Notes under the pieces: generated by a model | Databases searched by the model: none | What the model was told of the DNA's origin: nothing | The model's input: only the letters and a program-made list of their open reading frames with translations | Translations under genes and position numbers: made by a program | NCBI GenBank assembly: GCA_041389225.1 | Contig: JAWKSI010000001.1 | Location: 51,821 to 115,820 of the forward strand | Reading direction: 5' to 3' | DNA length: 64,000 nt | DNA from: Candidatus Doudnabacteria bacterium | GTDB taxonomy: Bacteria > Patescibacteriota > Doudnabacteria > UBA920 | In this document: piece after piece, positions 578 to 46,916 of the stretch | Numbering within the stretch: position 1 is the first letter of the stretch | Layout of the letters: each line of letters opens with the position of its first letter

Positions 578-995
578 AAAAGGCGTCTATATTTTACCTT
601 AAAACCAAAATAAGTTTTTTACCAATTTTGCGATTTGCGATCTTATTCCTAAGAACTGCTCTAGATTTTTCCTCCTCCTTCATACAAACAAAAAACTTGG
701 CTTGCGCCAAGACTTCATTTGTAATTTTTTTTTAAAATTTATGAAATAGTCTTAGCACTCGTATTAACCAGAAAAAAGGCAAAGGTTGCCTTAGTGGTAA
801 TAATACGAGATGTGTGCCAATTAAATTTCATATAGATGGATTATATGCCTATTGTTTTATGATGTCAAACCATTTATCCCCAAACAAAACAATTTTGATA
901 TAAATAAAATGTAGACTAAGTTATAATTTAAATAAATACTTACTATAATTTTATTCATCTCATTAATTTATTAAGCTAAAAGCCATAAAACTAAA

Positions 996-5464: not shown

Positions 5465-5519
5465 ATAAATCAATAGTACTATCATCCTGCCTGTACCCAA
5501 ATGAGTGAGAAGTGTAGTC

Positions 5520-5548
5520 GCGAAGGATCTCTCAATGAGATCCTTCGC
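5520..5548. repeat. perfect 12-bp-stem hairpin (gcgaaggatctc/tcaat/gagatccttcgc) inside a REP-like element that shares motifs with the 10.5-11.0 kb repeat array
   Basis: The inverted repeat is read directly from the sequence. The flanks tgtacccaaatgagtgag and ttcgttca..gaatgac recur at 10949-10975 and 10905-10920. Confidence 0.6.
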
Positions 5549-5589
5549 TTCGTTCACCCGTTCAAATACAGACAGAATGACATAAAGTT

Positions 5590-6483
5590 ATGCTCACTTA
5601 TACCGAAGTATCCAAAAACAAAACCTATTCCGTCTTACTAATTTTAATCTTCTTAGTCATAATTAGCGGACTTGGTTTTGTCCTTGGTCAAATTTATGGT
5701 TCTCCAGAAATTTTGATCTTCGCTGTAATTTTTAGTTTTGGCTCTGCTTTTGTTTCATACTTTGCGGCTGATAAAATAGCTCTTTCAATGTCGGGAGCAA
5801 TTCCGCTCACCAAAGAACAAGCACCGGAGCTCTATCGAACTGTCGAAAATCTGAGCATGACTGCAGGACTTCCAATGCCTCGTGTCTATATTATTAACGA
5901 CGCCGCGCTCAACGCTTTTGCTACAGGCCGCAATCCACAAAACGCAGCGGTTGCTGTTACTTCTGGATTACTACAAAAGCTTAATCAAACTGAACTCGAA
6001 GGAGTTATCGCTCACGAACTTTCACATGTTGGAAATTACGATATTCGCTTTATGGCTTTGGTTATGGTTTTGGTTGGTACAGTATCTTTGCTTTCTAACT
6101 GGTTTTTTAGATTCAGTTTTTTGGGTAATCGCAAAAAAGAAGGAAGTAATCCAATTTTCCTACTCATTGGTTTGGGGTTATTAATTCTCTCGCCGATTAT
6201 TGCCACATTAATCAAACTTGCAGTTAGTCGCAAAAGAGAATTTCTCGCTGATGCCTCTGGTGCTTTGCTTACTCGCTATCCCGAAGGCTTAGCTTCGGCA
6301 CTCGAAAAAATCTCAACCCATAGCCAACCTCTTAGCACAGCTAATACCGCTACAGCACACCTATTTATCAGCAACCCTCTCAAAAACAACTTGGCCAAAT
6401 CACAAAGTTGGTTTACAAATTTATTCAACACTCACCCGCCAGCTGACGAACGAATTCGCCGTTTAAGAGAGATGGGTCGCTAA
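5590..6483 (+). CDS. htpX: HtpX-like M48 zinc metalloprotease
   Basis: HEXXH motif (AHELSHVGNYD), TM helices at the N-terminus and in the middle, C-terminal HPP..ERIRRL. Confidence 0.85.
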   Translation: MLTYTEVSKNKTYSVLLILIFLVIISGLGFVLGQIYGSPEILIFAVIFSFGSAFVSYFAADKIALSMSGAIPLTKEQAPELYRTVENLSMTAGLPMPRVYIINDAALNAFATGRNPQNAAVAVTSGLLQKLNQTELEGVIAHELSHVGNYDIRFMALVMVLVGTVSLLSNWFFRFSFLGNRKKEGSNPIFLLIGLGLLILSPIIATLIKLAVSRKREFLADASGALLTRYPEGLASALEKISTHSQPLSTANTATAHLFISNPLKNNLAKSQSWFTNLFNTHPPADERIRRLREMGR

Positions 6484-6780: not shown

Positions 6781-7080
6781 ATGAACCCAGAAAACCCTCG
6801 CAGGCCAGACCAAGAAGAACAAGAGCTAATGACTAACAAAGCTTTGCTCGACTATCTTTTTAAAGATGGCGAAAATCCCTACGAAAACATACAACAATCT
6901 CTAACCGTGACCAAAAAGATTTTGGAGTACTTAAATGTCGATCTTGAGTCAGCTCAACAAGAAAACAAGCCATACGAGATTGCTGGGATTGAGTACAGCA
7001 TAGCTGTAGTCAATAAAAAAATCGCTGAACAAGAACAAGAGATCAACGATCAACCTCTAGAACTTGGCGACATAGGCTAA
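6781..7080 (+). CDS. hypothetical acidic protein (99 aa)
   Basis: ORF only. It starts at the stop codon of the previous ORF (TAAATG). Confidence 0.35.
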   Translation: MNPENPRRPDQEEQELMTNKALLDYLFKDGENPYENIQQSLTVTKKILEYLNVDLESAQQENKPYEIAGIEYSIAVVNKKIAEQEQEINDQPLELGDIG

Positions 7081-7576
7081 AAGAAACCAATCGCATCATA
7101 ACTAAACCTCGACTAACAAGTCGAGCTTTTATTTTTTGTTTCTGCTCATACTCCATTTTGGATACTTCTTCCACAGAACCAAAATTTTTTTCTACGTATT
7201 TTTTTGCAATGGCAATTTCGTCTTCCAAACTCACTTGCTCTGATAAACTTTCTTCTATTAAATCAGTTGGTAACTTTTTGAGCATCATTTTTTGCTTCAT
7301 CATAAATTTGCCCCAATACTTAAAATCCTTCATGTTTCGAATAAAAATCTCGGCGTACTTGTCATCATCTATATATCGATCTTCTTTAAGCTTAACCAAA
7401 ACATGATCGATCACTTCTGGTAAGTAACCACGCTTTTGCATTTTCTCGCGCATTTCGCCTTGAGTGCGCATGCTGATATTCAAAACAAACAACGCGTAGT
7501 TGTACGCGTGCTCAATATCACTCGGATCTTTTAGAGGCTTAGCTTTTTTAAACATCTCGACTTTAAAATGATACAA
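7043..7576 (-). CDS. recX: RecX-like regulatory protein. The real start is probably the internal Met at about 7558 (MFKKAKPL...).
   Basis: ...HAYNYALFVLNISMRTQGEMREKMQKRGYLPEVIDHVLVKLKEDRYIDDDKYAEIFIRN... matches the RecX three-helix repeat pattern (L..R..S..EL..KL..KG.....I..VL..L.E..Y.DD..YA). Confidence 0.65.
   Translation of the reverse strand: MYHFKVEMFKKAKPLKDPSDIEHAYNYALFVLNISMRTQGEMREKMQKRGYLPEVIDHVLVKLKEDRYIDDDKYAEIFIRNMKDFKYWGKFMMKQKMMLKKLPTDLIEESLSEQVSLEDEIAIAKKYVEKNFGSVEEVSKMEYEQKQKIKARLVSRGLVMMRLVSFSLCRQVLEVDR
7108..7137. terminator. bidirectional intrinsic terminator: ctcgac..gtcgag hairpin plus a T-run
   Basis: Sits between the convergent 6781..7080 (+) and recX (-) genes. 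Confidence 0.5.
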
Positions 7577-7616: not shown

Positions 7617-7645
7617 TTGACAGAACAAAGGTTTTCTTATATAAA
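7617..7645 (+). promoter_or_regulatory. sigma-70-type promoter for clpC
   Basis: TTGACA (7617-7622), a 17-nt spacer, then TATAAA (7640-7645). Confidence 0.55.
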
Positions 7646-7649
7646 TATA

Positions 7650-7676
7650 TTATCACTCTTTATCTTAGAGTGATAA
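7650..7676 (+). promoter_or_regulatory. CIRCE-like inverted repeat TTATCACTC-N9-GAGTGATAA (HrcA-operator-like) immediately downstream of the -10
   Basis: Perfect 9-bp arms with a 9-nt spacer. The CIRCE consensus TTAGCACTC-N9-GAGTGCTAA differs by one symmetric position. Confidence 0.5.
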
Positions 7677-7799
7677 AAATATTATTGAACAGACATAGAT
7701 TATTGTCTAGATTTGTCCATCACAAGACATAATTTGGAAACCAAGCATGCATCGTAATTAACTTACGCTGAGTAAGGTTAAAAAAATTATAACGCAGTA

Positions 7800-10403
7800 A
7801 TGAGCAAGCGCTCTGGACAATATAAAATTATCATGAATAACTTCGCCTTTATTTTAGAACGACTTTCAAGCCGAGCCAAAAATGCGCTCATTGCAGCACA
7901 AATGGTTTCGGAAGAACTCCACCACGATCATATCGGAACGGAGCATCTTTTGTTTGGCATTGTCGCCGAAAAAGCTTCCTTTGCCGCAGAAATTTTGATC
8001 AAATCAAAAGTCACCCCTGATGTAGTCAAACAAGAAGTTTCACTTGTTAACCAAAACAGTCAAATCGCTTCGTGGAAACCAGTTCTCTCCCCTAACCTCA
8101 AAAGTGCGATCGAAAAATCTGCGATCATTGCTAGCCAGTACGGTTATCAATTTATTGGTACCGAACATTTTTTGTACGGCCTAACTACAACGGGCAACAA
8201 CAAGTCTCGAGTAATTCTCTCTAAACTCGGAATCAACATGAACGAACTCGAACAAAATCTTATTGCTGTATTCGAAAATATTTCTAAGTTTCCAGAAATT
8301 CCAGGACAAGACAACGACCCCGAACCGACTCACGAAAACCACCCACACCCTGGTGCAATGATGCCAACCCCTGACGGTAAACGCGGCAATGTGCTCGAAC
8401 AATTTACTACAGACTTAACTCAAAAAGCAGCGCAAGGAAAAATCGACCCAGTAATTGGTCGCAAAAAAGAGATCGAACGTGTTATCAGCATCCTTGGTCG
8501 CCGAACCAAAAATAACCCAGTCCTAATTGGCGAAGCTGGAGTTGGAAAAACCGCAATCGTCGAAGGTCTTGCATTAGCAATCGCCAACCGTGAAGTTCCA
8601 GATAATTTACTCGACAAAAAAATCTTAGCTCTCGACTTAGCTTTGGTTGTTGCAGGTTCAATGTTTAGAGGAGAATTTGAGAATCGACTCAAGCAAATTA
8701 TTGATGAAGTTAAAGAAAACGAAAATGTCATCCTCTTTATTGACGAACTTCATACCATGGCTGGCGCTGGCGCTTCGCAAGGTAGTTTGGACGCGGCTAA
8801 TATTCTCAAACCTGCACTAGCCCGTGGTGAAATGCGCACTATCGGCGCCACCACAATTTCGGAATACAAAAAACATATCGAGACTGATGCTGCACTCGAA
8901 CGACGCTTTCAATCAATCTTAGTAGAAGAGCCGAGCAAAGAAGAAACTATTGCTATCCTCAAAGGTATTCGACCTAACTACGAAAAACACCATAACGTTC
9001 AGATTACTGACGAAGCTATTAATGCTGCCGTCGAACTTTCTGATCGCTACATTCAAGATCATCACCTCCCCGATAAAGCTGTTGACCTTGTCGACGAAAC
9101 TGCAGCTTTTCTTCGAAGTATTCATAGCAACTCCAAACTTGCCAAAACCAAACGCAAAGTTGAATCAGAATTAGAAACTCTCGAACAAGAAAAAACCAAA
9201 GCTGTGATGGAACAAGATTTTACAACTGCACTCCACTTGCGAAGCCAAGAAGATCGTTTACTCAAACAAAAAAAAGAACTCGATCTTTTGGCAGCCAAAG
9301 AAAAAGGTCCGGTATATTCGATTAGCGCCCAAGACATCGCCCATACCGTAAGTCTCATGACCAAAATCCCGTTACAAAAACTAGCACAGAGCGAAGTCGG
9401 AAAACTTACAAACCTCGAAAAAGTTCTCAAAACCAAAATCGTTGGTCAAGACGAATCTATTACCGAAATTGCCAAAACTATTCGCCGCAGTCGCGCTGGA
9501 TTGGCCGACCCAAATCGCCCAATCGGTTCTTTTATGTTCTTAGGTCCAACTGGAGTTGGAAAAACCGAAACCGCCAAAGCTATTGCCGCGGAAGTATTTG
9601 AAGACCCTGATGCACTAATTAGAGTCGATATGTCAGAGTTTATGGAACGCCACAATGTCGCGCGATTAATTGGCGCACCCGCTGGTTATGTTGGCTACGA
9701 AGAAGGTGGTCGCCTAACCGAAGCAGTTCGCCGTAAACCTTATGCAGTTGTCTTGTTTGACGAAATCGAAAAAGCACACCCAGAAGTATTCAATATCTTG
9801 CTTCAAATTCTTGAAGATGGTCAACTTACAGACAGCTCCGGGAAACGAGTCAACTTTACCAACACTGTGATAATTATGACTTCCAACCTTGGTATGCAAG
9901 AGCTTAATGCCCAAGCTAACAAAATTGGTTTTGCCGACAAAGAAGAAGAAACTAATCAAAAAGCCAAGCTCGAACAAGAATACGAACGCATCAAAGTCGG
10001 TCTACTAGAAAAACTCAAAAAAGATTTGCGGCCAGAATTTCTAAACCGAATCGATAAAGTTTTGATTTTTAAACCACTAGGACAAACCGAACTCAAAAAA
10101 ATTACAAGACTTCAACTCAAAGAATTATCAGAGCGTATCAAAGCTCAAGGTTCGGAACTCAAATTTGAGACACCTGTGGTCAACTTCATTACACAAAAAA
10201 GTTACGACCCGTTGCAAGGAGCGCGCTACATTCGTAAAAATATCCAAGATTTAGTCAGCGACCCATTGGCTGAAGAAATTATTTCGAATGAACTTATTCC
10301 TGGTTCAATTATCACGATTACTTTGGACCACGATGAGCAAATTCGCTTTGAACGATCTGCGAACAAAACTGCAACCAAAAAACCAGAACCAGTAGTTGCG
10401 TAA
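7800..10403 (+). CDS. clpC: ClpC-type AAA+ chaperone: Clp_N repeats, two AAA modules, a short UVR-like middle domain and an IGF-like loop
   Basis: Walker A motifs GEAGVGKTAIVEGLA and GPTGVGKTETAKAIA. The UVR-like segment is EQDFTTALHLRSQEDRL. KIGFADKEE is a ClpP-docking-loop-like segment. The shortness of the middle domain argues against ClpB. Confidence 0.9.
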   Translation: MSKRSGQYKIIMNNFAFILERLSSRAKNALIAAQMVSEELHHDHIGTEHLLFGIVAEKASFAAEILIKSKVTPDVVKQEVSLVNQNSQIASWKPVLSPNLKSAIEKSAIIASQYGYQFIGTEHFLYGLTTTGNNKSRVILSKLGINMNELEQNLIAVFENISKFPEIPGQDNDPEPTHENHPHPGAMMPTPDGKRGNVLEQFTTDLTQKAAQGKIDPVIGRKKEIERVISILGRRTKNNPVLIGEAGVGKTAIVEGLALAIANREVPDNLLDKKILALDLALVVAGSMFRGEFENRLKQIIDEVKENENVILFIDELHTMAGAGASQGSLDAANILKPALARGEMRTIGATTISEYKKHIETDAALERRFQSILVEEPSKEETIAILKGIRPNYEKHHNVQITDEAINAAVELSDRYIQDHHLPDKAVDLVDETAAFLRSIHSNSKLAKTKRKVESELETLEQEKTKAVMEQDFTTALHLRSQEDRLLKQKKELDLLAAKEKGPVYSISAQDIAHTVSLMTKIPLQKLAQSEVGKLTNLEKVLKTKIVGQDESITEIAKTIRRSRAGLADPNRPIGSFMFLGPTGVGKTETAKAIAAEVFEDPDALIRVDMSEFMERHNVARLIGAPAGYVGYEEGGRLTEAVRRKPYAVVLFDEIEKAHPEVFNILLQILEDGQLTDSSGKRVNFTNTVIIMTSNLGMQELNAQANKIGFADKEEETNQKAKLEQEYERIKVGLLEKLKKDLRPEFLNRIDKVLIFKPLGQTELKKITRLQLKELSERIKAQGSELKFETPVVNFITQKSYDPLQGARYIRKNIQDLVSDPLAEEIISNELIPGSIITITLDHDEQIRFERSANKTATKKPEPVVA

Positions 10404-11961: not shown

Positions 11962-12010
11962 CTAAAATTTTTATCGTGCAGACCTACACACTATCGATTT
12001 TAGGTTAAAT

Positions 12011-12040
12011 AAAACCGCCGTAAGGCGGTTTTATTTATTC
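12011..12040. terminator. bidirectional terminator (aaaaccgcc gtaa ggcggtttt)
   Basis: Hairpin flanked by A-runs and T-runs, between the tRNA and the vapC 3' end. Confidence 0.55.
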
Positions 12041-12510
12041 TATTTTAATTTTATATCTTTAGGTTTCAGTAAATTTATCCCTGGAACTATTTCGAAGTCG
12101 TCTTTACCATCCCTTGAGAGTATACTTTTAACATTATTATTTTTCATAATCACACAATGAAAAGCATCTCCCCAGCCAGGATTGTATAAATTCATATTTT
12201 CACCAACATCTGACCAAAAATCATCAAAGGTATAATTGCTGTTTTTATGTGTATCTAGGATAAAAAACTTAACATTATAGATCTTTGATGATCTTTGAAG
12301 CCTATTAATATCTGAAGCAACTTTTTTGGGCTTTATATTAAATTGATTTATTAATACTTTTGCCAGCTCAACAAAAGTAAATAATGAGGTTACAAACCTA
12401 ACACTCTCCATCCCACTTAGCACCTCAACAGCATTTTCTATTTCAGAGCTAAATTCATCTTTCATATACCATGAAACAAATATATTTGTATCTAAATATA
12501 TATCTTTCAT
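12040..12510 (-). CDS. vapC: PIN-domain protein (VapC-like toxin)
   Basis: The N-terminus MKDIYLDTNIFVSWY is typical of PIN domains (D..N, acidic residues). 156 aa. Confidence 0.7.
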   Translation of the reverse strand: MKDIYLDTNIFVSWYMKDEFSSEIENAVEVLSGMESVRFVTSLFTFVELAKVLINQFNIKPKKVASDINRLQRSSKIYNVKFFILDTHKNSNYTFDDFWSDVGENMNLYNPGWGDAFHCVIMKNNNVKSILSRDGKDDFEIVPGINLLKPKDIKLK

Positions 12511-12511
12511 T

Positions 12512-12667
12512 TTATTTCTTAGCTTTGAATTTTACTGGAACTTCAACCTTTACAGCTTTTTTAGCTTTAAATGAAACACTCTCACCATTTTTAGTTTTAA
12601 AACTAACAGTTACCGGCTTTTGGACTGTCTTGGTAGCCTTAAATTCAACAATTTTTTTGCGTGTCAT
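12512..12667 (-). CDS. unannotated 51-aa lysine-rich ORF (MTRKKIVEFKATKTVQKPVTVSFKTKNGESVSFKAKKAVKVEVPVKFKAKK), a candidate antitoxin partner of VapC
   Basis: Minus-strand translation from the ATG at 12667. Its stop overlaps the vapC start. It falls below the 60-aa cut-off of the ORF track. Confidence 0.4.
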   Translation of the reverse strand: MTRKKIVEFKATKTVQKPVTVSFKTKNGESVSFKAKKAVKVEVPVKFKAKK

Positions 12668-12676
12668 AATTCGATT

Positions 12677-13949
12677 CTACACCAATTTAAGAATCTTGTC
12701 TTCATACTTAATTTTAGATTTTAAATTAGACAATAATAATCTTTTCTCACTAATAGAGCCTTCTTTCAGCAAATATTTTGCATAATTTTTTATGTCAGCG
12801 TCTTTATTATTAGAGACACTCTTAATACCCAAGACACTGGATTGAAATTTATTAAACCTGCTTACTTCGAGCTCTAGCCTTTTCTTAATCCCCAGTTCAT
12901 CAATATCCGTATAATCAATAATTTTAGCTAACTGATCAATCAGCTCTTTTTCTCTAATATACTTGTTTTTACAAAACCTATCTTTAGCTCTAGTGCAGGA
13001 ATAATAAATGTATTTGTTTGACCCACCGTTTTTTAGCTCTTTCCATTTTTCTTCTGCTGATATTCCTGAGCCACACTTACCGCATATAAACATTTTAGTA
13101 AATGCGAATTCTTTAGATTGTCTAGAAATATTATTTCTCTTAAGTTGTTCCTGAACTTTATCAAATAACTCCTTGGTTATAATTGGCTTGTGTCTTCCTT
13201 GATAAACATTGCCGCTATTTCTTGGATATTCAAATTCTCCGTAATAAAAGGTGCTTTGAAGTATTTTGTAAACCGCCGAAAGTGTTACAGGTCTATTACC
13301 TCTTGTATAGAAGTTAAGCTCGAATCTTAACCAGTGATATAACTTTCTACCTGACCATTTTTCGTGAGCCACTTTTTCGAACATTTGTTTTATAACTAAG
13401 GCTCTCTGAGGATCCTGAATAACCACACCCTTTCTATCTGTGCGCTTTTGGTTTAGATAGCCCAAAGGTGCCATATTTGGCCAAAAACCAAGCTCTACGC
13501 GCGTCCTCAACCCTCTTTTAACATTTATACCACGATTGTCATTTTCTAGCTTAGCTTGAGACCCCAATATCATCAGCAAAAACTTTTCATTTGGATTATT
13601 AGAAAACTCTTGGCCGTATGTTCTAATTTTTTGCAATTGCCCTCCATCCATTAAATCGACAATAGATCCCAAGTCTCCAGCATTACGAGATAACCTATCA
13701 GGCGCCCAGGTGAGTATGCCGTTAAATTCTACCCTCTTTAATTTCGCTTAAGAGCTCATTAAAGACTGGTCTTTGATTAGTTTCTTTAGCAGAATGTGAT
13801 TCTTGTTTAATTGTCACAATCTCAAGCCGATCACGCTCTGCTATTTGTAGCATCTCTTTTATCTGTGAATCTATAGACATTACCTGCTTCTCGTCGCCCT
13901 CGGAGCTACCCCTTGCGTATAGACAATATCTTATCTTTATTTCTTCCAT
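12677..13949 (-). CDS. large serine recombinase: resolvase catalytic domain plus recombinase and zinc-ribbon domains, interrupted by one frameshift at about 13722-13730
   Basis: The N-terminal 75-aa ORF (YARGSS..Q) reads on in another frame as ...GILTWAPDRLSRNAGDLGSIVDLMDGGQ.... Removing one T from the attt run at the junction restores ...EGRINGILTW.... The C-terminus has Cys-rich CGKCGSG..YYSC. Confidence 0.8.
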
Positions 13950-14020
13950 ACCACATTAATGACGCACCTGCCTTTTTTAGTCTAGGTAGATAATTTAAAA
14001 ATCAGCCATTTGGCTGATTT

Positions 14021-14722
14021 TTAAGAATACTTATATTCGAGTTTCTCTTTGACTTTTTTCCAATTTGGTAGCTTCTTGTCTAAACAAGCAAAAAATAACT
14101 TATTATGCTTTCTATATTTAATATGGCATAGCTCATGGATTAAAACATAATCTATACAATCTTTAGATGCGTGAATAAGTTTTGGATTTAATGATACTTT
14201 TTTACCCTTAAGGAAACTTCCCCACCTCTTCGACATATTTCTTAGTTCTAACACCAAATCATTATTTTTCGGAAATAGCTTTTTCATCTTCTCAAACCTA
14301 TCCTCAAATACAACAACTGTTTTTTCTTTATACCACCGATCAATTAATATTTTTGTATACGAACTGTTCTTAACTGATTTACTTGTTCTCACCTCAAAGA
14401 CCCCTCTAAAGAGGCATATCGAATCAGCTTTAGCACTTTTAACTACTAATTTATATTGCCTACCTAAATATAATAAACTTTCCCCAGAAACATACTCACG
14501 TTTATATTCTTTTTTATTCACTCGATCAAAAAAGTCGAGCTGTTTATTCATCCAAAACCATTTTCGTTTTAAAAACTGTTCAACTTTATACAGGTCAATA
14601 TCCAAGGGACCTTTGACCACTATTTCTTTGCTCGGTTTAATCGTTAAAGATAAACTTTTGCGTTTTTGTTTTATTAATTGATATTGGTATTGGTAATTTC
14701 CGTATACAAATTTTTTGATCAT
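14021..14722 (-). CDS. WLM/DUF45 (YgjP-like) zinc metallopeptidase, a known companion of type I R-M operons
   Basis: HEXXH motif in DYVLIHELCHIKYRKHN. Lies immediately downstream of hsdR. Confidence 0.7.
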   Translation of the reverse strand: MIKKFVYGNYQYQYQLIKQKRKSLSLTIKPSKEIVVKGPLDIDLYKVEQFLKRKWFWMNKQLDFFDRVNKKEYKREYVSGESLLYLGRQYKLVVKSAKADSICLFRGVFEVRTSKSVKNSSYTKILIDRWYKEKTVVVFEDRFEKMKKLFPKNNDLVLELRNMSKRWGSFLKGKKVSLNPKLIHASKDCIDYVLIHELCHIKYRKHNKLFFACLDKKLPNWKKVKEKLEYKYS

Positions 14723-17700
14723 TAGATTATCTTATGGTTATTCTCTGCCAACTGCACGGCTTTTTCAATCACTTCTTTACTAGCTTCTGGGCTTAAATCC
14801 AAATCATATTCAACCCTTGCCACATCATACAAATAGTCGTCAATTTTATTCATCATCTTTCTTTTTACATCTAAATTTTTATGCCAATCCACTATACTTT
14901 CTTGTTTGATTATACCTATGATATCTAATATTACCGAGGTATAATTTTCGCCGTCTAAAGGTATTAAGTTCTGTAAATTTCTATACAGAATGTCAGCACC
15001 TTTAACAGCAGTTACTTTTTCTGGCAAGCCTTCATCTCTTTTATTTACCACTTGGTCTTCAATCAACCTTAATTGTTTTAAGGCTTCGATGTCTGCCAGT
15101 TTCTTTAATCTCATTTGATCTAAAATCTCTTGGATTTTTTGAAAAGCGATCATAAAATTCTGGATCAGACTCAACATTTTCTCTAATTGTCTTATCTGTC
15201 TGGGCCGCGATCGCTTCTGCTTTAGATTTGTCGGAACCTAGATTTTCTACTTCTTCTTGAAATGCATCTCGGTCGGTAATGTTAACTTGCTTAGTCAAAA
15301 GTTCTACCCCTTTTGCATCAACGTATTTATCCAGCACATCAATTAAAGACTGTTTGTATTCTCCTAAATCTACAGAATCACCATAAACCAAACTTGAAGC
15401 TTTTCTTAATTCCATAAATTTCTTTAGCTCTCTTTTATATAAATCAATGTGTTTAAATTCTTTTACAAAGTTTTGTAAGACGAGACATTCATTAAACTCA
15501 CGAATAAACTTATTCATAGTTTTATAAAATACATCTCTTTGCTGTTCATCCTCTAAATGTCTAATAAAAACCTCGTCATCTTTAGAACCCTTAACTTCTT
15601 TAAAAATATCGTGAAGTTCACCATATGAATGTTCCAGCGATTCTATTTTGTCATCTACATCAATTAAAGCACTCTTAACATCATCTTCATCATAATTACC
15701 AAATAGTTTCATTGCGGTATCAATATTCTTAGCATTTTCCGAATAGTCGACTATAAAACCAGCAGTTTTTGGCAAGACTTCATTTTCAAATAATCTATTG
15801 ACCCGAGCAATAGCTTGCAGTAAATTATGATCTCTTAAGTCTTTGGATAAATACAAAACTGTATTTCGTGGAGCATCAAATCCAGTAAGAAGCTTATCTA
15901 CCACTATAATAATCTCCACCCCATCTTCATTATTTTTAAAACTACTAATCACACCGTCTTCATAAGATTTTACACTAGAGTGATTAGCCCTAACTTCGCC
16001 CAAATAATCCACTACAGTCTTTTTATGGGTATTAACTTTATCTCCATCCTCATGTTCATCAGAAATCACTACAGCTGTATTGATCTTCCCACTAATTGCA
16101 AAAGCTCGCTGGAACAACACCGCAGAAAACTTTGATGGTGCTACAACCTGTGCCTTTAATCCAGTACCTTTAAAATTATCCAAAAAGTGTTTTTCTATAT
16201 CAAAAGCTATCTCTGCAATTCTCTGGGGATTGTCTTTAATAATTTTACTTCCTACATATTGCTGAATCTCTTGCTTTTGTTTGTCCGACATTCCAGCGGT
16301 AATCCGCTCGATATGTTTGTCGATCATGTCTTTATTCTGCACTAAATCGACATATCGACCCTCATAAATTAAAGGTAAAATAACTTTATCATCTAAGGCA
16401 TCATCAATTGTATACCTATCAATGTAGCTACCAAATTTTCTCCAACTTTCAGCTTCTTTTTTCATTAATGGAGTGCCTGTAAAGGCAATATAACAAGCGT
16501 TAGGAATTATCCGATTCATTTCCAAATTGGCAATCCCGGTTTGACTGCGGTGTGCTTCATCAATTAATACAAAAATATTTGAATCATTATCAACCAAGCC
16601 AGTTCGCTTTTTACTGGCTGATTCAAACTTATGCACCAAAGTAGTAATTACGTCCAAACTCTTATCTTTTATTAATCCTAATAAATGCTCGCCACTAGTG
16701 GCCTGGGTTACACCCTTTTTAAGATTACAGTTTTTAAAAGTATCTTTAATTTGTTTGTCTAAATCTTTACGATCTGTAACTACAATCACTCTTGGGTTGG
16801 TAATATTCGGATCTTCTATTAACGCTTTCACAAACATGACCATTGTTAAAGATTTACCTGACCCTTGAGTATGCCAAATTAACCCACCTTTTCTCTTACC
16901 TTCGCCATTAGCACCTTCTTCGTATTCATTAATTCGATTAAATATTTTACGGATTGCAAAATACTGTTGGTACCTGGAGATCTTTTTTATCCCAGCGTCA
17001 AAAACTATATAGTTTTTAGTTAAATCTAAAAGCCTGTCTGGTTTAAATAAAAACACCACACCTTTATCTTGTTCTGTTACCAATCTACTTGTATGTTGTG
17101 TAGTTTGTTCAGGAGATCCATTTAAATCTTTAACCAACTGATTATATACTTTTGGTTCAATTTGCCTTTGCATTACAGACAAAACCTCAGATTCTACTTC
17201 TTCTACACTTAAGCCTTTTTCCTTCCATGCGCTATAAAACTTATTAGGTGTTCCCGTGGTACCATATCTTAAGTCCTTACCATTAGTGCCAACTAATAGT
17301 TGAGCATATGTAAATAACTTAGGGCAATAATCTGCTCCCTGGTTGCGATTTTGTTGCGAGAAAGCCTTGTCTACATCTACGCTAGATTTTTTGTTTTCTA
17401 TTACTGCGAAGGGTATTCCGTTTACAAAACAAACAATGTCTGGGCGAATCTTTTGCTTTCCTTGGGCTTCAAATTCTACAGATACATGGTAGTCATTATT
17501 ATCTGGATTTTTAAAATCTATAAATCTAAAATTCTTAGAAACCTTTTTACCATCGTGATGCACGACTATTGTTTTCCCACCAGCCGTCGGCATAATAGTG
17601 TTAAACACTTCTTGTGAACTATCTATTAAGCCTTTGTATTCTAAATTCTCTAATTCATCAATTGCATCCCTAACATCCTTTTCTCCAAACTTATAGTTTT

Positions 17701-17896
17701 TACCATCTACTTCGTAACTATTAAGCTCCATTAGTTTTTTAGATGCAATATCGTGCAGCAAAAAAGTGCTTGAGTCATTTCCACGCAGCTGCATTATTTC
17801 TTCTCGAGAAATATATTTATATCCAAGATTAATCAATAACTCTACAAAAGGTAATTGTGATTGCCTGGCTTCATCAAAATGTACTTGTTCTAACAT
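14722..17896 (-). CDS. hsdR: Type I restriction enzyme R subunit HsdR, roughly 1060 aa if one frameshift at the A6 run (about 15160-15166) is corrected
   Basis: N-terminal HsdR nuclease region, SF2 helicase motifs (HTQGSGKSLT, FVLIDEAHRSQ) and a C-terminal domain carried by the 151-aa ORF. Reading A6 as A5 gives the continuous ...DPEFYDRFSKIQEILDQMRLKK.... Confidence 0.9.
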
Positions 17897-17998
17897 AATT
17901 TAGTAATTTAATTCCTATAAATAAGTGGGTTTTTATATTTGACATAAACATGATTTATGCTATAATACCTACATCAATACGAAAAGGGATCCGAACGG

Positions 17999-18544
17999 TT
18001 AATTACCTAAGGAGCCCTTTTCTTTTTGCATGATTTTACTTTTAATACTAGGATTTTCTAGTTGATCAAAATATTCTGCGCCAATTTTTTTATATAAAGA
18101 GGAAGCGTATTTTTTATTTGGAAATAATACCTTTAAAAACCTATTTTCGGATATCAAAAAATCAACGAGCATTTTATAGTCGCCATCGCCAGACACTAAG
18201 ACAACTTTATCAAAGTCATCTTTTTTATACATCTTTTTCATAATAGAAAAAATAATATCACAATCCACATTTCCTTTTTTATTTCCCAGCATTGCAGAAT
18301 TATGTTCTCTAAAGACTAAAACAAAACCGGCTTCTTGTATATCTGTATATAAATCTTGATAGTCTTCGTTAAGCCACCCTAAAAAATAATATGCAGTTTT
18401 AACCTTATATTTATTTGCCAAGTATACCCGAAATTTCTCCAAGTCTACTTTCCAAGGACTTATTTCATGCTTAGTGGTGCCCATAAATAAATTTTGCCCA
18501 TCAATATAGGCTAAATTATTTGGTTGTGATTGATAGTCATTCAT
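17999..18544 (-). CDS. NYN (LabA-like, PIN-superfamily) nuclease-domain protein
   Basis: AYIDGQNLF...DCDIIFSIM...VVLVSGDGDYKMLVDFL matches the NYN pattern (IDG.NL...D......VLVSGD.DF). Lies between hsdS and hsdR. Confidence 0.7.
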   Translation of the reverse strand: MNDYQSQPNNLAYIDGQNLFMGTTKHEISPWKVDLEKFRVYLANKYKVKTAYYFLGWLNEDYQDLYTDIQEAGFVLVFREHNSAMLGNKKGNVDCDIIFSIMKKMYKKDDFDKVVLVSGDGDYKMLVDFLISENRFLKVLFPNKKYASSLYKKIGAEYFDQLENPSIKSKIMQKEKGSLGN

Positions 18545-18552
18545 ATAAGATA

Positions 18553-19731
18553 CTACTTTACTTTTTCTAATAAGTCTTCTGGGGTTCTAATCTTCCCAGT
18601 AACTAAATTGTTTAATAAATATTTTTTCTGTTCTTGCCAGAGGGTAAGTTTTTTCTGGAGAGCGGCGATCTCATCATCAGCAGAGGTGAGAATATCAGCG
18701 ATTGCTTTTTGTTCCCTTAGTTCTGGAACACTATATTTAATAGACAGAAGTTCTGACTTATTCAACTTTGCTCTTGTTCCTCCGTTCAAATACATCAAAA
18801 CATTTTTATGCACCGTTGAATAAAAAAGGAAATCTTGAGAATTTTTTTCATTCGCTTTAATAACATGCGCATGATTGTTAACCCATGATTTCCCATATAC
18901 ACGATAAGCGATTGGTCGATTTTGATATTCATCAAATTGACCTCCATCTTCTGCAACCAGAATAATATCTTCATCAAAAAGATAATCATTTACATAATCA
19001 ACGATATTATTTGCACCGCAGTATGGAATAATGCCTTGCATTCTCGATCTTTCGTCAGAGTTTAATGGAACTCTCTTTGCGTCTAAACAAATAGCAATAT
19101 CTTTAAGTTTTACCTCTTTCCACTCGTCACTAAACCCAGGTAAACGTTTTTTGCCTGTGAGGAGTTGTTGCATCAAACCCTTTTTGATATTTTTCTTTAA
19201 AGCAATTTTCTTTTTAAGTTTTTCAATAGCCTCATCCCATGTTTCGAGAACAGTAGCGATACGGTTTTGTTCAAGGAGAGGGGGAAATTTCATGGGGCAA
19301 GAAAGTATGTCATCTTTTCGTAAGTTTGTTTGATTTACCCCATCATCAAAAGAAAGGAAGTAGCGATTTCTGCTTAGAGCAAGATATAAGAACTTCCTTG
19401 ATACCCCCTTTGCCCTAAATCCTCCAATTCTTTGATTTAGAGTATAAGTATTGTCTTTATTGACATAAAAACACTTTGCTATAGCTTTCCCATTTGGGAC
19501 ATCACTCATTACCATTGCAATGTCTCCTTTTTTTAAAGGGACCAAAAACTTATTTGAGTATTTTTTTATTTTTCCATTAGATGAAATAAATTTTGAATTC
19601 ACAACTACATAATTTCCGTTTTCATCAATATCTTTTTCATGCCCTTTTCCATTGAAAAAGTCTACTACTTCTCTGAGTTGTTTTTTTACCCACCCATTAG
19701 GAATATTTTGTTGTTTATTTCTGGTCTTCAT
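18553..19731 (-). CDS. hsdS: Type I restriction-modification specificity subunit HsdS (two target-recognition domains)
   Basis: 392 aa. The central and C-terminal conserved coiled regions (LLEQNRIATVLE.., LREQKAIADILTSADDEI) are typical of HsdS. Confidence 0.8.
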   Translation of the reverse strand: MKTRNKQQNIPNGWVKKQLREVVDFFNGKGHEKDIDENGNYVVVNSKFISSNGKIKKYSNKFLVPLKKGDIAMVMSDVPNGKAIAKCFYVNKDNTYTLNQRIGGFRAKGVSRKFLYLALSRNRYFLSFDDGVNQTNLRKDDILSCPMKFPPLLEQNRIATVLETWDEAIEKLKKKIALKKNIKKGLMQQLLTGKKRLPGFSDEWKEVKLKDIAICLDAKRVPLNSDERSRMQGIIPYCGANNIVDYVNDYLFDEDIILVAEDGGQFDEYQNRPIAYRVYGKSWVNNHAHVIKANEKNSQDFLFYSTVHKNVLMYLNGGTRAKLNKSELLSIKYSVPELREQKAIADILTSADDEIAALQKKLTLWQEQKKYLLNNLVTGKIRTPEDLLEKVK

Positions 19732-20208
19732 TTAATTTCTTTTTGATTGAATTCCTTGTTCAACCACAGCTTCTATATTTCTCGCAATCCAGTTATATGC
19801 ATCAGACCCTGCGTCATACACAGAAATATATTCTGATAAATTTTTGCCATTCTTTAAGCCGATTTTTATAAACGGGTTAATGCCCTTGGAACATGTTCCT
19901 GTTCGTGGGTCCCTGAGATTATGAATGTATATTCCGACCAATCCTTTTTTACTATTCCATGCTTTTTCTATTTCATACTTTACCCACTTGCTTTTATGAG
20001 TCTCCGCTCCAATCAAAACAACAACACAAGAAGATTTTTCTATGTTTTCGTCAATCCACCGACGTATCGCCGCATCTCCACCTCTTTTAATTTCTTCCCA
20101 TCTATTTGGGGTGACGGGTTTATTAGCTTCAATAACACCTATGTTTCTAATTTGTTGTACTCTCATTACATCATTACGAAAATGAAAGCTGTAAAATATA
20201 TTCCTCAT
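19732..20208 (-). CDS. ThsB-like TIR-domain protein (DUF1863 / MTH538 TIR-like family), 158 aa
   Basis: NIFYSFHFRNDVMRVQQIRN...NRWEEIKRGGDAAIRRWIDENIEKSSCVVVLIGAETHKSKWVKYEIEKA...GLVGIYIHNLRD...SKGINPF aligns motif-by-motif with Thoeris ThsB-type proteins (VFFSFHY.D...RV..VRN, VLIG..T..R.WV.YEI.K, IGIHI...KD, KG.NPF). The gene is wedged between hsdM and hsdS, and its stop abuts the hsdS start. Confidence 0.75.
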   Translation of the reverse strand: MRNIFYSFHFRNDVMRVQQIRNIGVIEANKPVTPNRWEEIKRGGDAAIRRWIDENIEKSSCVVVLIGAETHKSKWVKYEIEKAWNSKKGLVGIYIHNLRDPRTGTCSKGINPFIKIGLKNGKNLSEYISVYDAGSDAYNWIARNIEAVVEQGIQSKRN

Positions 20209-20214
20209 AATTAA

Positions 20215-20612
20215 AATATACTAATTAATATTACTAATAAAATAGTGGGTATATAAAATAACTTTAAGGTATTGGACCACATGCAATACAAAATAGCAGT
20301 GTCACGCAATGAATTAAATTTAGAAACAGACATTGAATAATCTATAAGTGCTTCATCTTTGATATTTCTAACTTCATCATATAAATGCCTGTATTTGCGC
20401 TCTAAAGATAAAAATAAGCATCATGAATCCAAAATATCATGATTACCAAAATCAATATAATCTGCAATTCATTTCTACAAATTCTAAAAATGCTGCTGCT
20501 AACGCCACAACTAGTGTTATCATCCATCCTCTCAGGGTGAATAGATTATTTCCCATGCGAGAAATAACCTCTTGAATCATTTGCAAATGTGCAATCTTTT
20601 TGTTATCCGACA
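20215..20612 (-). pseudogene. small membrane protein gene (about 165 aa, two predicted TM segments) broken into three frames
   Basis: Minus-strand ATG at 20612 gives MSDNKKIAHLQMIQEVISRMGNNLFTLRGWMITLVVALAAAFLEFVEM. The reading continues in the other two frames as NELQIILILVIMIFWIHDAYFYL and ERKYRHLYDEVRNIKDEALIDYSMSVSKFNSLRDTAILYCMWSNTLKLFYIPTILLVILISIF. It lies directly upstream of the TIR gene. Confidence 0.4.
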
Positions 20613-20626
20613 TATTAATTTTTGAC

Positions 20627-22129
20627 TATTTAATACTCATAGCCTTTAAGTATTTTTTCATCTGTTCTTCAAGCTCTTTCAATTCTGGCTCAAGCTTCGA
20701 CAACTCCTGTAGTTTTGCTCCAATATCTACTGGTCTTCTTCAAGATATCGACATATCTTGTAATATTTAGATTAAAATCATTTTCTTTAATCTCTTTAAA
20801 CTTAACCACACGAGCAAACTTCTCGACATCTTTACGATCTTTGTAGCTTTTAAAGATTTTATCTATGTTTTCTTCGGTTAAAGTATTTTGAGCTTTCCCA
20901 GATTTATACTCTTTAGACGCCTCGATAAACATGACATCTTTTTTGCTCTCATTCTCTGCCCCTGCCTCACGAGATCTGTCTATCACCAAAATAGCTACAG
21001 GAATACCGGTAGTAGAGAATAGTCCTGCAGGCAGGCCAATAACAGCATCAATCAAGTTTTCTTCTAGTAACTGCTTTCTAATTTTCCCTTCAGCGCCACC
21101 TCTAAATAACACACCATGAGGCACTATAATAGCTCCACGACCTGTTTTAGGTTTTAAGGTTTCTACCATATGGCTGATAAAAGCATAGTCACCTTTGTCT
21201 TTAGGTGGCACTCCACGGTGAAAACGGTTAAATGGATCACCTTCGGCATTTTCGGCTCCCCATTTTTTTAGACTAAAAGGAGGATTAGCTACTGCAACAT
21301 CAAATTTAATTAATTTACCATTTTCTACTAGCAGTGGATTATTTAAAGTATCACCCCACTCAAGTCGGGCAGAGTCTTTGCCATGCAAGAACATGTTCAT
21401 ACGAGCTAGCTGGTAAGTAGAACCCGTGGATTCTTGTCCATATAAAGCGTAATCGTTTGACCCTTGAGATTCTACTTCTTCTCCTGCTAACAAAAGTAAA
21501 CCACCTGAGCCAACAGCGAAATCACAAATACGATCTCCAGGTTTTGGTTGAGCAAGTTTGGCCACCAATTTTGCAACATTCCTAACAGTAAAAAATTCTC
21601 CTGCCTTTTTTCCTGCGTCTGCACCAAATCGCTCGATCATATACATATAAGATTCGCCGAGAACATCCTCACCAACTTCAGACAAATCAATCTTATTAAA
21701 ATCCTGCATCAAGTGCCTGATCATTTTATTACGTTGATCAAGCTTGCCTAAGATTGACTCATTATTAAAGTCTACAGAAAAAATTCCTTCGAGCTTATCA
21801 CGATTCTCTTCTTCTATTTTATGAAGAGCTTTATTAATCTCTTCACCAATATTGTCAGATTCTATCTTTTCGTATAAAGCATCAAATGTAGCTTCTTCTG
21901 GAATATAAAAACGATCGAGTTTCATCTTTTCTTCGACACGCTTCTTATCACCCTGGTAACGCTCTACATACTCAGCCCTTTTTATTTTAGAAATGTCACT
22001 GACATATTTAAAGAAAAGCATTACTAATACATAATCTTTATACACTCCAGCATCAACAGATGTCCTAGAAGAATCCGCTGCCTGCCAAAGCACTTTATTT
22101 AATTCTGGTTGTGTTATTTTTTTAGACAT
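20627..22129 (-). CDS. hsdM: Type I R-M N6-adenine DNA methyltransferase HsdM. The annotated stop at 20690 is probably a 1-nt indel, and the reading continues to 20627 as ...ELEPELKELEEQMKKYLKAMSIK.
   Basis: N-terminal HsdM domain and NPPF motif (VAVANPPFSLKKW). A typical coiled C-terminus is recovered after a 1-nt correction near 20695. Confidence 0.9.
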
Positions 22130-22709
22130 TATTTTGTAGTTTAAGAAAAATGGTCTTTAGTATATCGCGTTTTAGCTGCTTTTGTTTGTCGTGGAGGTTT
22201 ATCTGCTTAATAACATTATTATACAAATCAACTATAGTTTTTTGTTGTTCTAGACTAGGTAATAAGATAGAAGTTTCACCTAAGACAGATTTAGATATGT
22301 GCATAATAGTACTTCCTCTGGCTTTTTGCATTATTTCTGATTGAAAAGCAGGTGAGTTTAAGTAAAAATTTAAGTACTCAGGATTAACCTTTTTGTCTTT
22401 GATTCTAATAATATACAAAGAGGAGTTTGCCATTGATTTTTGTTCGCTTTGAACCAGGGAAGATCTAAATTCTTTCCCGGGAGTACTGCGGGACAACATT
22501 AGAATATCATTCTGGTGTATCACTGCTGGAGACCTGGCTGGTAAACTTTCTAGCTTAGGTAAATTACTCAGCTCCGATATCTTGGTATTGCTTACAATGT
22601 CAGATGCTTGCACCACTGGATATTGGCCGTTTTCAGAGTAGTCCTTAATATAGATTGCTGCCCCAGATATAATATCGACAAGATCTTTTAACATAATATT
22701 TGAACTCAT
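22122..22709 (-). CDS. hsdS: half-size HsdS (single target-recognition domain), overlapping the hsdM start
   Basis: 195 aa. It has a TRD-like region and the conserved C-terminal helix (LEQQKTIVDLYNNVIKQINLHDKQKQLKRDIL). Confidence 0.6.
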   Translation of the reverse strand: MSSNIMLKDLVDIISGAAIYIKDYSENGQYPVVQASDIVSNTKISELSNLPKLESLPARSPAVIHQNDILMLSRSTPGKEFRSSLVQSEQKSMANSSLYIIRIKDKKVNPEYLNFYLNSPAFQSEIMQKARGSTIMHISKSVLGETSILLPSLEQQKTIVDLYNNVIKQINLHDKQKQLKRDILKTIFLKLQNNV

Positions 22710-22739
22710 ACAGACATTATACTAAGTTATAATTTTCTG

Positions 22740-23153
22740 TCAAATATTTTGATTATTTTTCTTAATCCCTGCAGCTTTAGCAATAATATCTGCCAAAGTA
22801 TGGGCTTCTTTTAGGTTTTCTGGGATTTCTTGTTCTTTTGAATAGACAATTCTAATGGTCTTATCACTACTATCTTTACTCGAGTAATGTTTATTATTAT
22901 GCTTTAATGCAAATTTTATTAAATCGCTCTTCCCTTCCTGTATCCCTTGTATCAGAGCATTTTCTGCAATATCCCCAATATTTTCTTTACCCTCTTTAAT
23001 TGCTTTATTAGTTTGAGCGGTAAACCGTTTACTAGATTTCCTTAATCTGTAATAGCTTGCCTTGCTGAATCCAGTCTTTTTACAGGAATACAAAACATTG
23101 CCAGTTTTTTCTAGCTCAGTTAAGAATCTTTGTTTTTGATCTTTAGAAATCAT
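22740..23153 (-). CDS. hypothetical protein with an N-terminal HTH (KKTGFSKASYYRLRK)
   Basis: ORF with an HTH-like motif. Its stop overlaps the start of the upstream methyltransferase. Confidence 0.4.
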   Translation of the reverse strand: MISKDQKQRFLTELEKTGNVLYSCKKTGFSKASYYRLRKSSKRFTAQTNKAIKEGKENIGDIAENALIQGIQEGKSDLIKFALKHNNKHYSSKDSSDKTIRIVYSKEQEIPENLKEAHTLADIIAKAAGIKKNNQNI

Positions 23154-23905
23154 TTTGTAAGAGATTGGTATCTATCGATAATTACTTGGCAGTAATTTAA
23201 GTCTATTTCAAAAGCAATACATTTCCTGCGTGTTTGCTCGCATGCAAGTAAAGTTGACCCAGAACCTGCAAACAAATCCAGTACTGTATCACCTATATTA
23301 CTACTATTTAAAATCATCTCTCTTAAAAGCGGTAGGGGCTTCATCGTTGGATGAAGTTTGCTTTTCTGCGGTTTTGGATAAAACAAAGCTGATTTACTTT
23401 TGGATTTATAAAATTTATGCCTGCCGTGCCAGCCGTAATAGATGAGTTAGTGCTGTGGTAAATAATCGAGTCGTCCTATCACTGGCTTATTTTTTACCCA
23501 GACAAGCATTTGCCCAAGTTTAATCTGTACTTTATCGCAAGCTTTCTTTAATGCAAAAATTAACTTATCTGAATTAAAAATATATATTGAATTATGTTCT
23601 GCAAAATATGGCGCAATGTTTTGCAGCCACCCAACAGAAAACTCCTTATAACTCTCTTCTGACTGCACTTCATCTCCAATTATTTCTGTATCATTACTTA
23701 ATTCTGCAAACTTGTATTTACTTTTTGTATAATCTACGCCGTAAGGCGGATCGGTGAGTAATAAATTAATTTTCTTTCCTGTTAATGCCTGATCCACCAA
23801 GTCTTTATCACGGCTATCACCGCAAACAAGAATATGACTACCAAGTTCGACTATACTGCCGTACTTAATTAAGTTTTTTGGCTTTTTGTCCTGTAAGTTC
23901 TTCAT
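23150..23905 (-). pseudogene. ParB-associated N6/N4 DNA methyltransferase (second copy) interrupted by an in-frame TAA at 23447-23449
   Basis: LLLTDPPYGV motif in the N-terminal part. HPTMKPLPLL and FAGSGST motifs in the C-terminal part. The two ORFs are in the same frame: ...DYLPQH*LIYYGWHGRHKFY.... Confidence 0.7.
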
Positions 23906-25129
23906 ATCTATTGATAATTAATTGTGTAAAGATAGGTGATTGCTCAATTACAAAAGCCTTTCGCTTTAATTGCTCGCAAGCAAGAAGCTCACTACCACTG
24001 CCTCCGAAACCGATAAAAATATTGTCTCCGGGTTTACTACGCCTCAGTAGTGGTCGTTCAAATAAAGACACGGGCTTCTGGGTTGGGTGCTCATAACTGC
24101 CCTGCGATTCTTTCGTCAACCAAATATCAATCATATCTTCAATGTTAGAAATGGTAGCATTACCAGTTCCAACATTGGATTTAATATCTCGTGGAAGTTT
24201 TTATGTTTATCAGATAAATATGGCTTCCCAAGAGTTCCATAAATTACTGGCTCATAGCACTTATTAAATCCAGATTTTGGAGTACAGTTGATCCCATTTT
24301 TGATCCAGACGCAAGTCCGCTTATAACTAATGCCTAGATTTTTATATATTGTTTGAACCAATCCTACGTTCCGCTGATCATTCCATATAAATATGTGAAC
24401 GTCGGGTTTTGTAATTTTAAGGCTAGTAGATATAGCTTTAGTTAAGAACTTCTCGTACTCATCACTCGACAAGTTATCGTTAAAATGTCCTCCATACTGA
24501 GATTTCCCAGATATTCCTTTATCATAATCCATGCAGATTCCATATGGCGGGTCACTAAGAATCATATCCATCTTTTCTCCGTTAGTTACTTTTAAAACAT
24601 CTGTTTCTTCAGTGCTGTCGCCGCAAAGTAGATAGTGATTTCCAAGTTTGAATAAATCCCCAGTTTTTATCTTTGTGTGTTTTGCCTGCTCTTCTTGCTG
24701 GGGCTTAATATCTAAATCTTCAAGAGAAATTTGGTTATCCCAAATATCACTTAACTCATTTTGACCAAACCCTATATCGAGCAACAAGTCTAAATCAAAT
24801 TCCTTCAAAAGCTCGTTGTTCCATGACCCAGTATTCTGGTTACTTCTAAGCAAATATTCTTCAAGCTCTGTTTTGTTCAGAAGACGACTTGGTACACGAA
24901 CTTCTATTTCTTCATCTGTTCTGCCAAGTAGCTTTAATATTTTGAGCCTTTGATGACCACTAATTACTGTGCCATCAAGATTAATAGCAATAAGCTCTAC
25001 ATAGTTAAACCGTTTAAAACTTTCAGTTAAGTGCTCTTTTTGAGTTTCGGACAAAGTCCTTGGATTTTTGTCGTAAGGAATTAAATCCTTAACTAGTCTT
25101 TTTTGCGTAGACCAAACTAAATTTTTCAT
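23865..25129 (-). CDS. ParB-like nuclease domain fused to an N6/N4 DNA methyltransferase, split by a frameshift at an A5 run (about 24196-24200)
   Basis: N-terminal ParB-like region (LIPYDKNPRTLSE), MTase motifs ILSDPPYGI, EHPTQKPV and FIGFGGSGS. Reading A5 as A6 gives the continuous ...DKHKKLPRDIKSNVGTGNATISNIEDMIDIWL.... Confidence 0.75.
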
Positions 25130-26729: not shown

Positions 26730-26757
26730 AGTGTCCTTAATTGGTGGGTATTTATAC

Positions 26758-27705: not shown

Positions 27706-27707
27706 TT

Positions 27708-28270: not shown

Positions 28271-28283
28271 CAATACACCTCCG

Positions 28284-28772: not shown

Positions 28773-29035
28773 ATAACCTCCAAGTATTTTTTAAAATTCA
28801 ACTAAATTATTATAATTTAGCTAATAACTATAGTATAAAAATCAGTTTTAGTCAAACGAAAAACCATGTGTAGCTGTGTCTCATTTGTCTCATTTTGTTG
28901 ATTAAAATCGCGACCCGAACTCCTCAAATTTGATATACTTAAAATATCTATAAAAGCCTTACTGGGCTTGCTCTCTGCCGGTACTTAACCAGAGTGGCCC
29001 GCCACGGATCTGTTTGCCACTTGTGGTAAATAGAA

Positions 29036-41625: not shown

Positions 41626-41634
41626 ATCATTTTT

Positions 41635-46885: not shown

Positions 46886-46916
46886 ATTAATTATAACATT
46901 TAAAAATTAAACTTAT

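Follow-up and report, generated by a model that had tools for sequence, protein, structure and literature searches.

Positions 7650–7676 of the 64,000-nt stretch of DNA analysed here (the window) very probably form a CIRCE operator on the promoter of clpC, a predicted binding site for an HrcA dimer; its T/A spelling is a natural variant that is widespread, and does not make it a new type of site. The predicted site most likely lets HrcA repress clpC. In the proposed mechanism, an HrcA dimer would bind 7650–7676, over the predicted transcription start near 7652, and clpC would be repressed in normal conditions; because the operator lies 4 nt past the −10 element and covers the predicted start, bound HrcA would block RNA polymerase. 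Under proteotoxic stress, unfolded proteins would titrate GroEL, HrcA would become inactive and repression would be lifted, and the derepressed clpC would be induced jointly with the chaperone genes. In the established model, HrcA activity depends on GroEL (Mogk et al. 1997, cited in PMC7737663). The anatomy of the site, its orthology to canonical CIRCE and the occurrence of the exact variant at heat-shock genes of many genomes are observed, while HrcA binding, heat induction and the transcription start, together with the presence of hrcA in this genome, are inferred.

Promoter, operator and gene at the clpC locus

The elements of the clpC unit and its divergent neighbour are as follows.

7617–7622, plus strand: −35 hexamer TTGACA of the clpC promoter (direct reading; hexamer, 17-nt spacing and position match the relatives L001, L003, L005 and L251)
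7623–7639, plus strand: 17-nt spacer between −35 and −10 (direct reading)
7640–7645, plus strand: −10 hexamer TATAAA, 5/6 match, final T absent (direct reading; kept in L001, L003, L005 and L251)
7646–7649, plus strand: 4-nt gap (TATA) between −10 and operator (direct reading)
7650–7676, no strand assigned: CIRCE-type operator TTATCACTC-N9-GAGTGATAA, arms 7650–7658 and 7668–7676 (11 orthologous sites)
7652, plus strand: predicted transcription start, within the operator's left arm (placed by the usual distance from the −10)
7677–7832, plus strand: clpC 5′ leader, 156 nt (direct reading; fold z-score −3.55 against shuffles)
7833–10403, plus strand: gene for a ClpC-type AAA+ ATPase, 856 aa (Pfam Clp_N twice, AAA, AAA_lid_9, AAA_2 and ClpB_D2-small)
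7043–7555, minus strand: recX, divergent neighbour, context outside the operator unit (Pfam RecX_HTH1/2/3, NCBIfam RecX)

Direct reading of 7617–7676 confirms the arrangement described in an earlier note on this DNA, namely TTGACA, 17 nt and TATAAA, then a CIRCE-like inverted repeat before clpC. The two arms are perfect complements and form a 9-bp inverted repeat with a 9-bp spacer, while the full perfect palindrome is 10+10 with a 7-nt loop (7650–7659 and 7667–7676). Compared with the consensus TTAGCACTC-N9-GAGTGCTAA, the operator matches at 16 of 18 positions and departs symmetrically at the other two, positions 4 and 24. The arm length and spacing of CIRCE and the symmetric G-to-T/C-to-A change, both pointed out in the earlier note, are thus borne out. 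Sites are referred to below by the bases at these two positions (G/C for the consensus, T/A for the window). In the whole window, no site other than the clpC operator comes as close as three mismatches to that operator or to the CIRCE consensus, and shuffled sequences lead one to expect 0.02 such sites for the operator sequence and 0.05 for the consensus.

The promoter had been called textbook, a description that holds for TTGACA, for the 17-nt spacing and for the conservation of TATAAA in four relatives, but not for the −10 hexamer itself, which matches at only five of six positions. The repeat, described as following immediately, is indeed the next element, although 4 nt separate it from the −10. 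The promoter scanner omitted the clpC −10 because its final T is absent (A at position 6). The pattern TTGACA-N17-TATAAW occurs three times in the window, whereas 0.04 occurrences are expected, and given this excess the matches look like real promoters. The other two are located at 840–868 (minus strand) and 39885–39913 (plus strand), and TATAAA recurs as a −10. Transcription usually starts 6–8 nt downstream of the −10. The clpC leader yields zero family matches in Rfam, and its length varies, with 156 nt in the window, 7 nt in L003 and 58 nt in L005.

The protein encoded at 7833–10403 is of the ClpC type, with Clp_N repeats, a pair of AAA+ modules and an IGF loop. Specifically, the ClpP-docking motif KIGFA is found at residue 698, and the middle domain is short as judged by eye. 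The protein scores 884 bits, below the ClpB equivalog cut-off of 1232 bits, which the Magasanikbacteria-type protein of L134 passes. The ATG at 7800 was rejected as the start of clpC; the ATG at 7833 (MNNF...) fits the relatives. An NCBI protein from a Candidatus Doudnabacteria MAG has the identical sequence (100%), indicating that the host is a CPR/Patescibacteria bacterium (Candidatus Doudnabacteria) and not a Firmicute. The Firmicutes frame of the earlier note, in which clpC is normally under CtsR, therefore does not apply. Between 302 and 11429, no CtsR box (tandem heptad, RGTCAAANANRGTCAAA) is present at up to two mismatches, and the rest of the window has three matches against 1.4 expected by chance. 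Upstream of clpC, where the divergent recX lies, ctsR (with mcsA and mcsB) was not found.

A promoter-like site for recX is located at 7610–7582 on the minus strand, and beyond recX lie two small ORFs that match nothing in Pfam, followed by htpX (peptidase M48) and then lemA. Relatives keep recX and clpC as a divergent pair and share the order LemA-HtpX-recX/clpC-comF, as judged where flanks were available. Downstream, a low-GC island (12000–28800, GC 0.33–0.35) encodes a PIN protein, a serine recombinase, a YgjP-like peptidase, an NYN protein, a type I restriction-modification system (hsdR, hsdM and two hsdS), a Thoeris ThsB-like TIR protein and another DNA methylase. In L003 and L005, comF is directly followed by genes for an ECF sigma factor and a DUF5667 protein, whose window counterparts are at 29315 and 29929, so 12000–28800 looks like an inserted defence island. 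On the minus strand, 41600–55800 holds a type IV secretion-like cluster with a VirB4/TraG P-loop ATPase (43897–45744), a PrgI-family protein (46436–46885) and several large proteins without a Pfam match, one of 1383 aa. The reading of the minus-strand block at 42–48 kb as an hrcA-grpE-dnaK-dnaJ operon was rejected, as Pfam assigns type IV secretion genes there.

Orthologous clpC and clpP promoters

CIRCE is found at the clpC promoter in all 11 relatives whose ClpC is 71–85% identical to that of the window (12 of 12 with the window included). Five of these relatives have G/C sites, with one or two mismatches to the CIRCE consensus, five have T/A sites, and one has a mixed G/A site. The arms are as follows.

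L003, L005, L251: left arm TTAGCAGTC, right arm GAGTGCTAA, G/C
L256: left arm TTAGCACTC, right arm GACTGCTAA, G/C
L249: left arm TTAGCAGAC, right arm GAGTGCTAA, G/C
L001 (closest relative, ClpC 85% identical): left arm TTAGCACTC, right arm GAGTGATAA, mixed G/A
Window, L172, L221, L247, L250: left arm TTATCACTC, right arm GAGTGATAA, T/A
L248: left arm TTATCAAAC, right arm GAGTGATAA, T/A

The position of the repeat relative to the promoter falls into three layouts, in all of which the repeat overlaps core promoter elements.

Layout 1, operator after the −10 (TTGACA-17-TATAAA-4-CIRCE): window, L001, L003, L005, L251
Layout 2, operator around the −35 (TTGACT or TTGACA inside the CIRCE loop, −10-like hexamer 16–18 nt further on): L172, L221, L247–L250
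Layout 3, CIRCE between −35 and −10: L256

In the six relatives with layout 2, the transcript cannot include the left arm, which precedes the promoter. Both arms are nevertheless conserved, which argues that the repeat acts as DNA, as the binding site of a symmetric protein. This bears directly on the proposal that the repeat works chiefly at the RNA level, as a hairpin in the clpC leader that acts on mRNA stability, as an attenuator or as a thermometer. At its 5′ end the predicted leader does fold into a 10-bp hairpin formed by the repeat, the terminator scan lists a weak stem with a T-rich tail, and the G–C to U–A exchange keeps the pairing. However, besides the left arm that lies upstream of the −35 and outside the transcript in those six relatives, the arm sequence TTAKCACTC itself is kept across phyla, beyond mere complementarity; in the window the predicted start falls within the left arm; the stem has only three G–C pairs; and Rfam offers no family for it. 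A main role as RNA is thus very unlikely. An intrinsic terminator or attenuator was rejected, with only three G–C pairs, a position just past the promoter, no gene that reads in on either strand, and the left arm untranscribed in the same six relatives.

In more distant relatives (L252–L255 and L257, ClpC 61–63% identical), CIRCE is absent from the 350 nt upstream of clpC, indicating that the link between CIRCE and clpC is confined to a subclade. These distant relatives have strong TTGACA/TATAAT promoters at clpC and leaders with other repeats; the leader of L253 contains three copies of TTTCTAACGGGAT, one of them inverted, which may be the site of a different regulator. Separately, in L303 (8545–12469) a near-canonical CIRCE with TTGAC in the loop precedes nusA, which is directly followed by a clpC-type gene, and L303 may represent another lineage with clpC under CIRCE control through a nusA-clpC unit.

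The second component of the protease shows a related pattern. The exact variant precedes clpP in L177, a record titled Candidatus Doudnabacteria, and in L192, which is Doudnabacteria-like by its nusA-clpP order and by a ClpP 85% identical to a Doudnabacteria-named ClpP. In L330, whose ClpP is 98% identical to that of L177, a mixed T/C form occupies the same place at clpP, and two other Doudnabacteria-type clpP promoters that we inspected have no CIRCE. As the variant is present at clpC and at some clpP promoters and absent at others, both parts of the ClpCP protease can apparently be under CIRCE control in the Doudnabacteria group, in a patchy manner. L221 and L192 are both titled 'uncultured Candidatus Saccharibacteria', but their gene order and protein identities make them Doudnabacteria-like; titles and gene content also conflict in L134 and further TPA_asm records among L127–L246.

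The T/A spelling across genomes and the regulator HrcA

A search for the exact T/A variant (18 specified bases) in the genomes of 185,579 species, one genome per species, gave at least 120 loci, where we estimate that roughly 10 matches would arise by chance at equal base frequencies. The flanking ORFs of the 120 loci listed were clustered, and representatives were checked with Pfam. In 113 of these 120 loci, the exact variant is directly upstream of a heat-shock gene, which argues that it is a functional spelling of CIRCE. The downstream genes are as follows, with the median distance from site to start codon.

groES: 49 of the listed loci (groEL next in 22), median 41 nt
Clp ATPase (clpB/clpC): 27 of the listed loci, median 25 nt
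hrcA: 23 of the listed loci, median 9 nt
hsp20: 8 of the listed loci, median 83 nt
dnaK: 4 of the listed loci, median 31 nt
clpP: 2 of the listed loci, both Doudnabacteria-type, median 68 nt

Most of the listed matches are in CPR genomes by record title or gene content, with Magasanikbacteria, Peribacteria, Nomurabacteria, Paceibacterota, Komeilibacteria and Harrisonbacteria among the titled groups. Outside CPR, the listed matches include Rhodobacteraceae, Salinibacter/Salinivenus and Peptoniphilaceae. In one case, the exact variant heads an operon of the order hrcA-grpE-DUF3467-hsp20-dnaK-dnaJ. A collection of viral contigs contains at least 120 canonical loci, 22 with the variant in one arm and 6 with the double variant, which marks the T/A form as a minority spelling of CIRCE, but, to judge from the genes it precedes, a genuine one. 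Looked up in the literature, the variant sequence matched unrelated primer sequences only. TTGAC occurs within the 9-nt spacer in 20 of the 120 listed exact-variant sites and faces the heat-shock gene in 16 of the 18 that could be scored, which places the −35 box within the loop of the operator. L204, from a MAG titled Pseudomonadota, has two CIRCE sites (5514–5601) upstream of an hsp20 gene, one T/A and one T/C.

These comparisons weigh heavily on the idea that the palindrome arose by chance and has no function. An AT-rich genome and a low-complexity intergenic region speak for that idea, but shuffles predict just 0.02 sites of this kind, the repeat is kept at the orthologous position in 11 relatives, and the identical 18 bases adjoin heat-shock genes in 113 of the 120 listed loci. 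A chance origin of the operator is excluded, and the likelihood of a functionless palindrome is practically nil. The same 113 loci, together with near-canonical CIRCE at clpC in the relatives, four of them at exactly the window's position, support the proposal of the earlier note that a CIRCE-like HrcA operator would control a Clp ATPase gene in this lineage.

In the 64-kb window, a Pfam scan of all large ORFs detected none of hrcA, groEL, dnaK and ctsR, and CPR HrcA proteins used as tblastn queries gave no match. Likewise, none of the Doudnabacteria-like loci examined showed an hrcA, and among the homologues of the L171 HrcA, the named matches are Paceibacterota or Parcubacteria and none is named Doudnabacteria. 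The hrcA neighbourhood of L332 has only a FIST protein in common with the window, at 25% identity. The hrcA genes that adjoin the variant (23 loci, L130–L237) encode proteins of 224–284 aa (for example L136, 4037–4714, and L171, 636–1355), while the usual length of HrcA is ~340 aa. In these short CPR proteins the match to Pfam HrcA is confined to its distal part; they score 142–175 bits, below the NCBI HrcA cut-off of 197 bits (TIGR00331), and are often named 'hypothetical protein' by NCBI. A profile of the 23 CPR HrcA proteins matches residues 16–111 of Thermotoga HrcA (PDB 1STZ) with E = 4e-29, so that by profile comparison the predicted N-terminal winged-helix DNA-binding domain of CPR HrcA is canonical. 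Short CPR-type hrcA genes are also carried by several records titled 'uncultured Gammaproteobacteria'.

It could be argued that the site belongs to a different palindrome-binding regulator and merely resembles CIRCE, given that hrcA is missing from the window and that the arms depart from the consensus at two positions. However, the orthologous sites include canonical CIRCE, and the exact variant stands before hrcA itself in 23 genomes, as well as before groES and dnaK, among the matches listed, which is the classic signature of HrcA autoregulation and of the HrcA regulon. We therefore consider an unrelated regulator highly improbable.

A closer alternative retains HrcA and the same operator and supposes that the HrcA of T/A lineages prefers T over G at half-site position 4, with regulator and operators co-evolving. 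The covariation of the two positions speaks for it. The 15 clpC and clpP sites of the clade comprise 8 T/A, 5 G/C and 2 mixed, where ~7 mixed sites would be expected if the positions were independent; in the viral contigs, independence would give at most ~1 double variant, against the 6 seen, and the double variant is over-represented at least six-fold relative to the single variant. Furthermore, among the matches listed, ten CPR genomes have two different heat-shock promoters that both carry the exact T/A form. On the other hand, sequence kinship inflates the apparent covariation; L177 and L330 differ at position 24 of the clpP site (T/A and T/C) despite ClpP proteins that are 98% identical; the T/A and T/C sites of L204 are 61 bp apart in one locus; relatives with 71–85% identical ClpC alternate between the G/C and T/A types; the variant is found in Rhodobacteraceae, Salinibacter and Peptoniphilaceae as well; and the DNA-binding domain of CPR HrcA appears canonical. 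The covariation of positions 4 and 24 fits either a lineage-level preference of HrcA or a need for equivalent or complementary arms. A shifted preference is thus a live but secondary idea, and a rather unlikely one. The earlier note had raised an HrcA-like regulator with altered specificity; the covariation is in keeping with that suggestion, but such a regulator is unnecessary, as G and T interchange among close relatives, clpP sites differ between genomes whose ClpP is 98% identical, and the CPR domain looks canonical. On the preferred reading, that of a CIRCE operator bound by HrcA, the G-to-T/C-to-A spelling would be one of two interchangeable states at half-site position 4 (TTAKCACTC) in this clade.

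Comparison with known systems and significance

Among the closest known systems are the CIRCE/HrcA operators of groESL and hrcA-grpE-dnaK-dnaJ in Bacillus subtilis (Zuber and Schumann 1994 and Mogk et al. 1997, cited through PMC6305308 and PMC7737663). Like them, the window site is a 9-N9-9 repeat of the TTAGCACTC type at or just downstream of a sigma-70-type promoter, with presumed repression by an HrcA dimer. It differs in that the target is clpC and not a chaperone operon, and in that arm position 4 is T/A and not G/C. The host also differs, being a CPR bacterium, and the HrcA homologues of other CPR lineages are ~100 residues shorter. A second parallel is the HrcA regulon of Mollicutes, which comprises the dnaK operon as well as clpB and lon (PMC5138195, PMC7737663), and in which CIRCE with up to two mismatches has been reported as functional (PMC5138195). 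There, as predicted here, CIRCE/HrcA reaches genes for AAA+ chaperones or proteases in a genome-reduced bacterium, and the two mismatches of the window site are within the Mollicutes range. Unlike in Mollicutes, the target is a ClpC-type ATPase that docks to ClpP (with clpP a target in some Doudnabacteria-like relatives) and not ClpB or Lon, and the phylum is another one.

In Streptococcus salivarius, clpP is reported to be regulated by both CtsR and HrcA (Chastanet and Msadek 2003, cited by title in PMC6305308). The S. salivarius promoter shares with the window a CIRCE before a gene of the Clp protease system and differs from it by the additional presence of a CtsR box, as neither a CtsR box nor a ctsR gene is near the window clpC. 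The ctsR-mcsA-mcsB-clpC operon of Firmicutes belongs to the CtsR class III regulon (PMC6305308). Stress-responsive repression at a clpC promoter is common to that system and, by prediction, to the window. The CtsR operator, however, is a tandem heptad and not a palindrome, neither the box nor ctsR is found here, and the upstream neighbour is a divergent recX. HrcA control of clp genes is therefore known already.

Taken alone, the locus adds a new host for an operator of an expected type. To our knowledge, gene regulation in CPR/Patescibacteria is almost unstudied, and a full-text literature search found no relevant paper linking HrcA to CPR/Patescibacteria; in the papers it covered, a single one names both HrcA and Patescibacteria, and it is unrelated. 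For the prediction of regulons, the rule that follows is that half-site position 4 is G or T, that is TTAKCACTC-N9-GAGTGMTAA, and HrcA models need lower thresholds for the short CPR form. It is possible, as a tentative reading for CPR as a whole, that a truncated HrcA (~225–285 aa, with ~100 residues of the C-terminal region missing) is the main or only heat-shock regulator, that its regulon comprises ClpC/ClpP, ClpB, Hsp20, GroESL and DnaK, and that its operators switch pairwise between G/C and T/A through lineage-wise co-evolution of regulator and sites. With the comparative data, the site points to a classical HrcA/CIRCE circuit in CPR. That circuit appears to reach clpC, clpP, clpB and hsp20 in several CPR lineages, and would there take the roles that belong to CtsR in Firmicutes.
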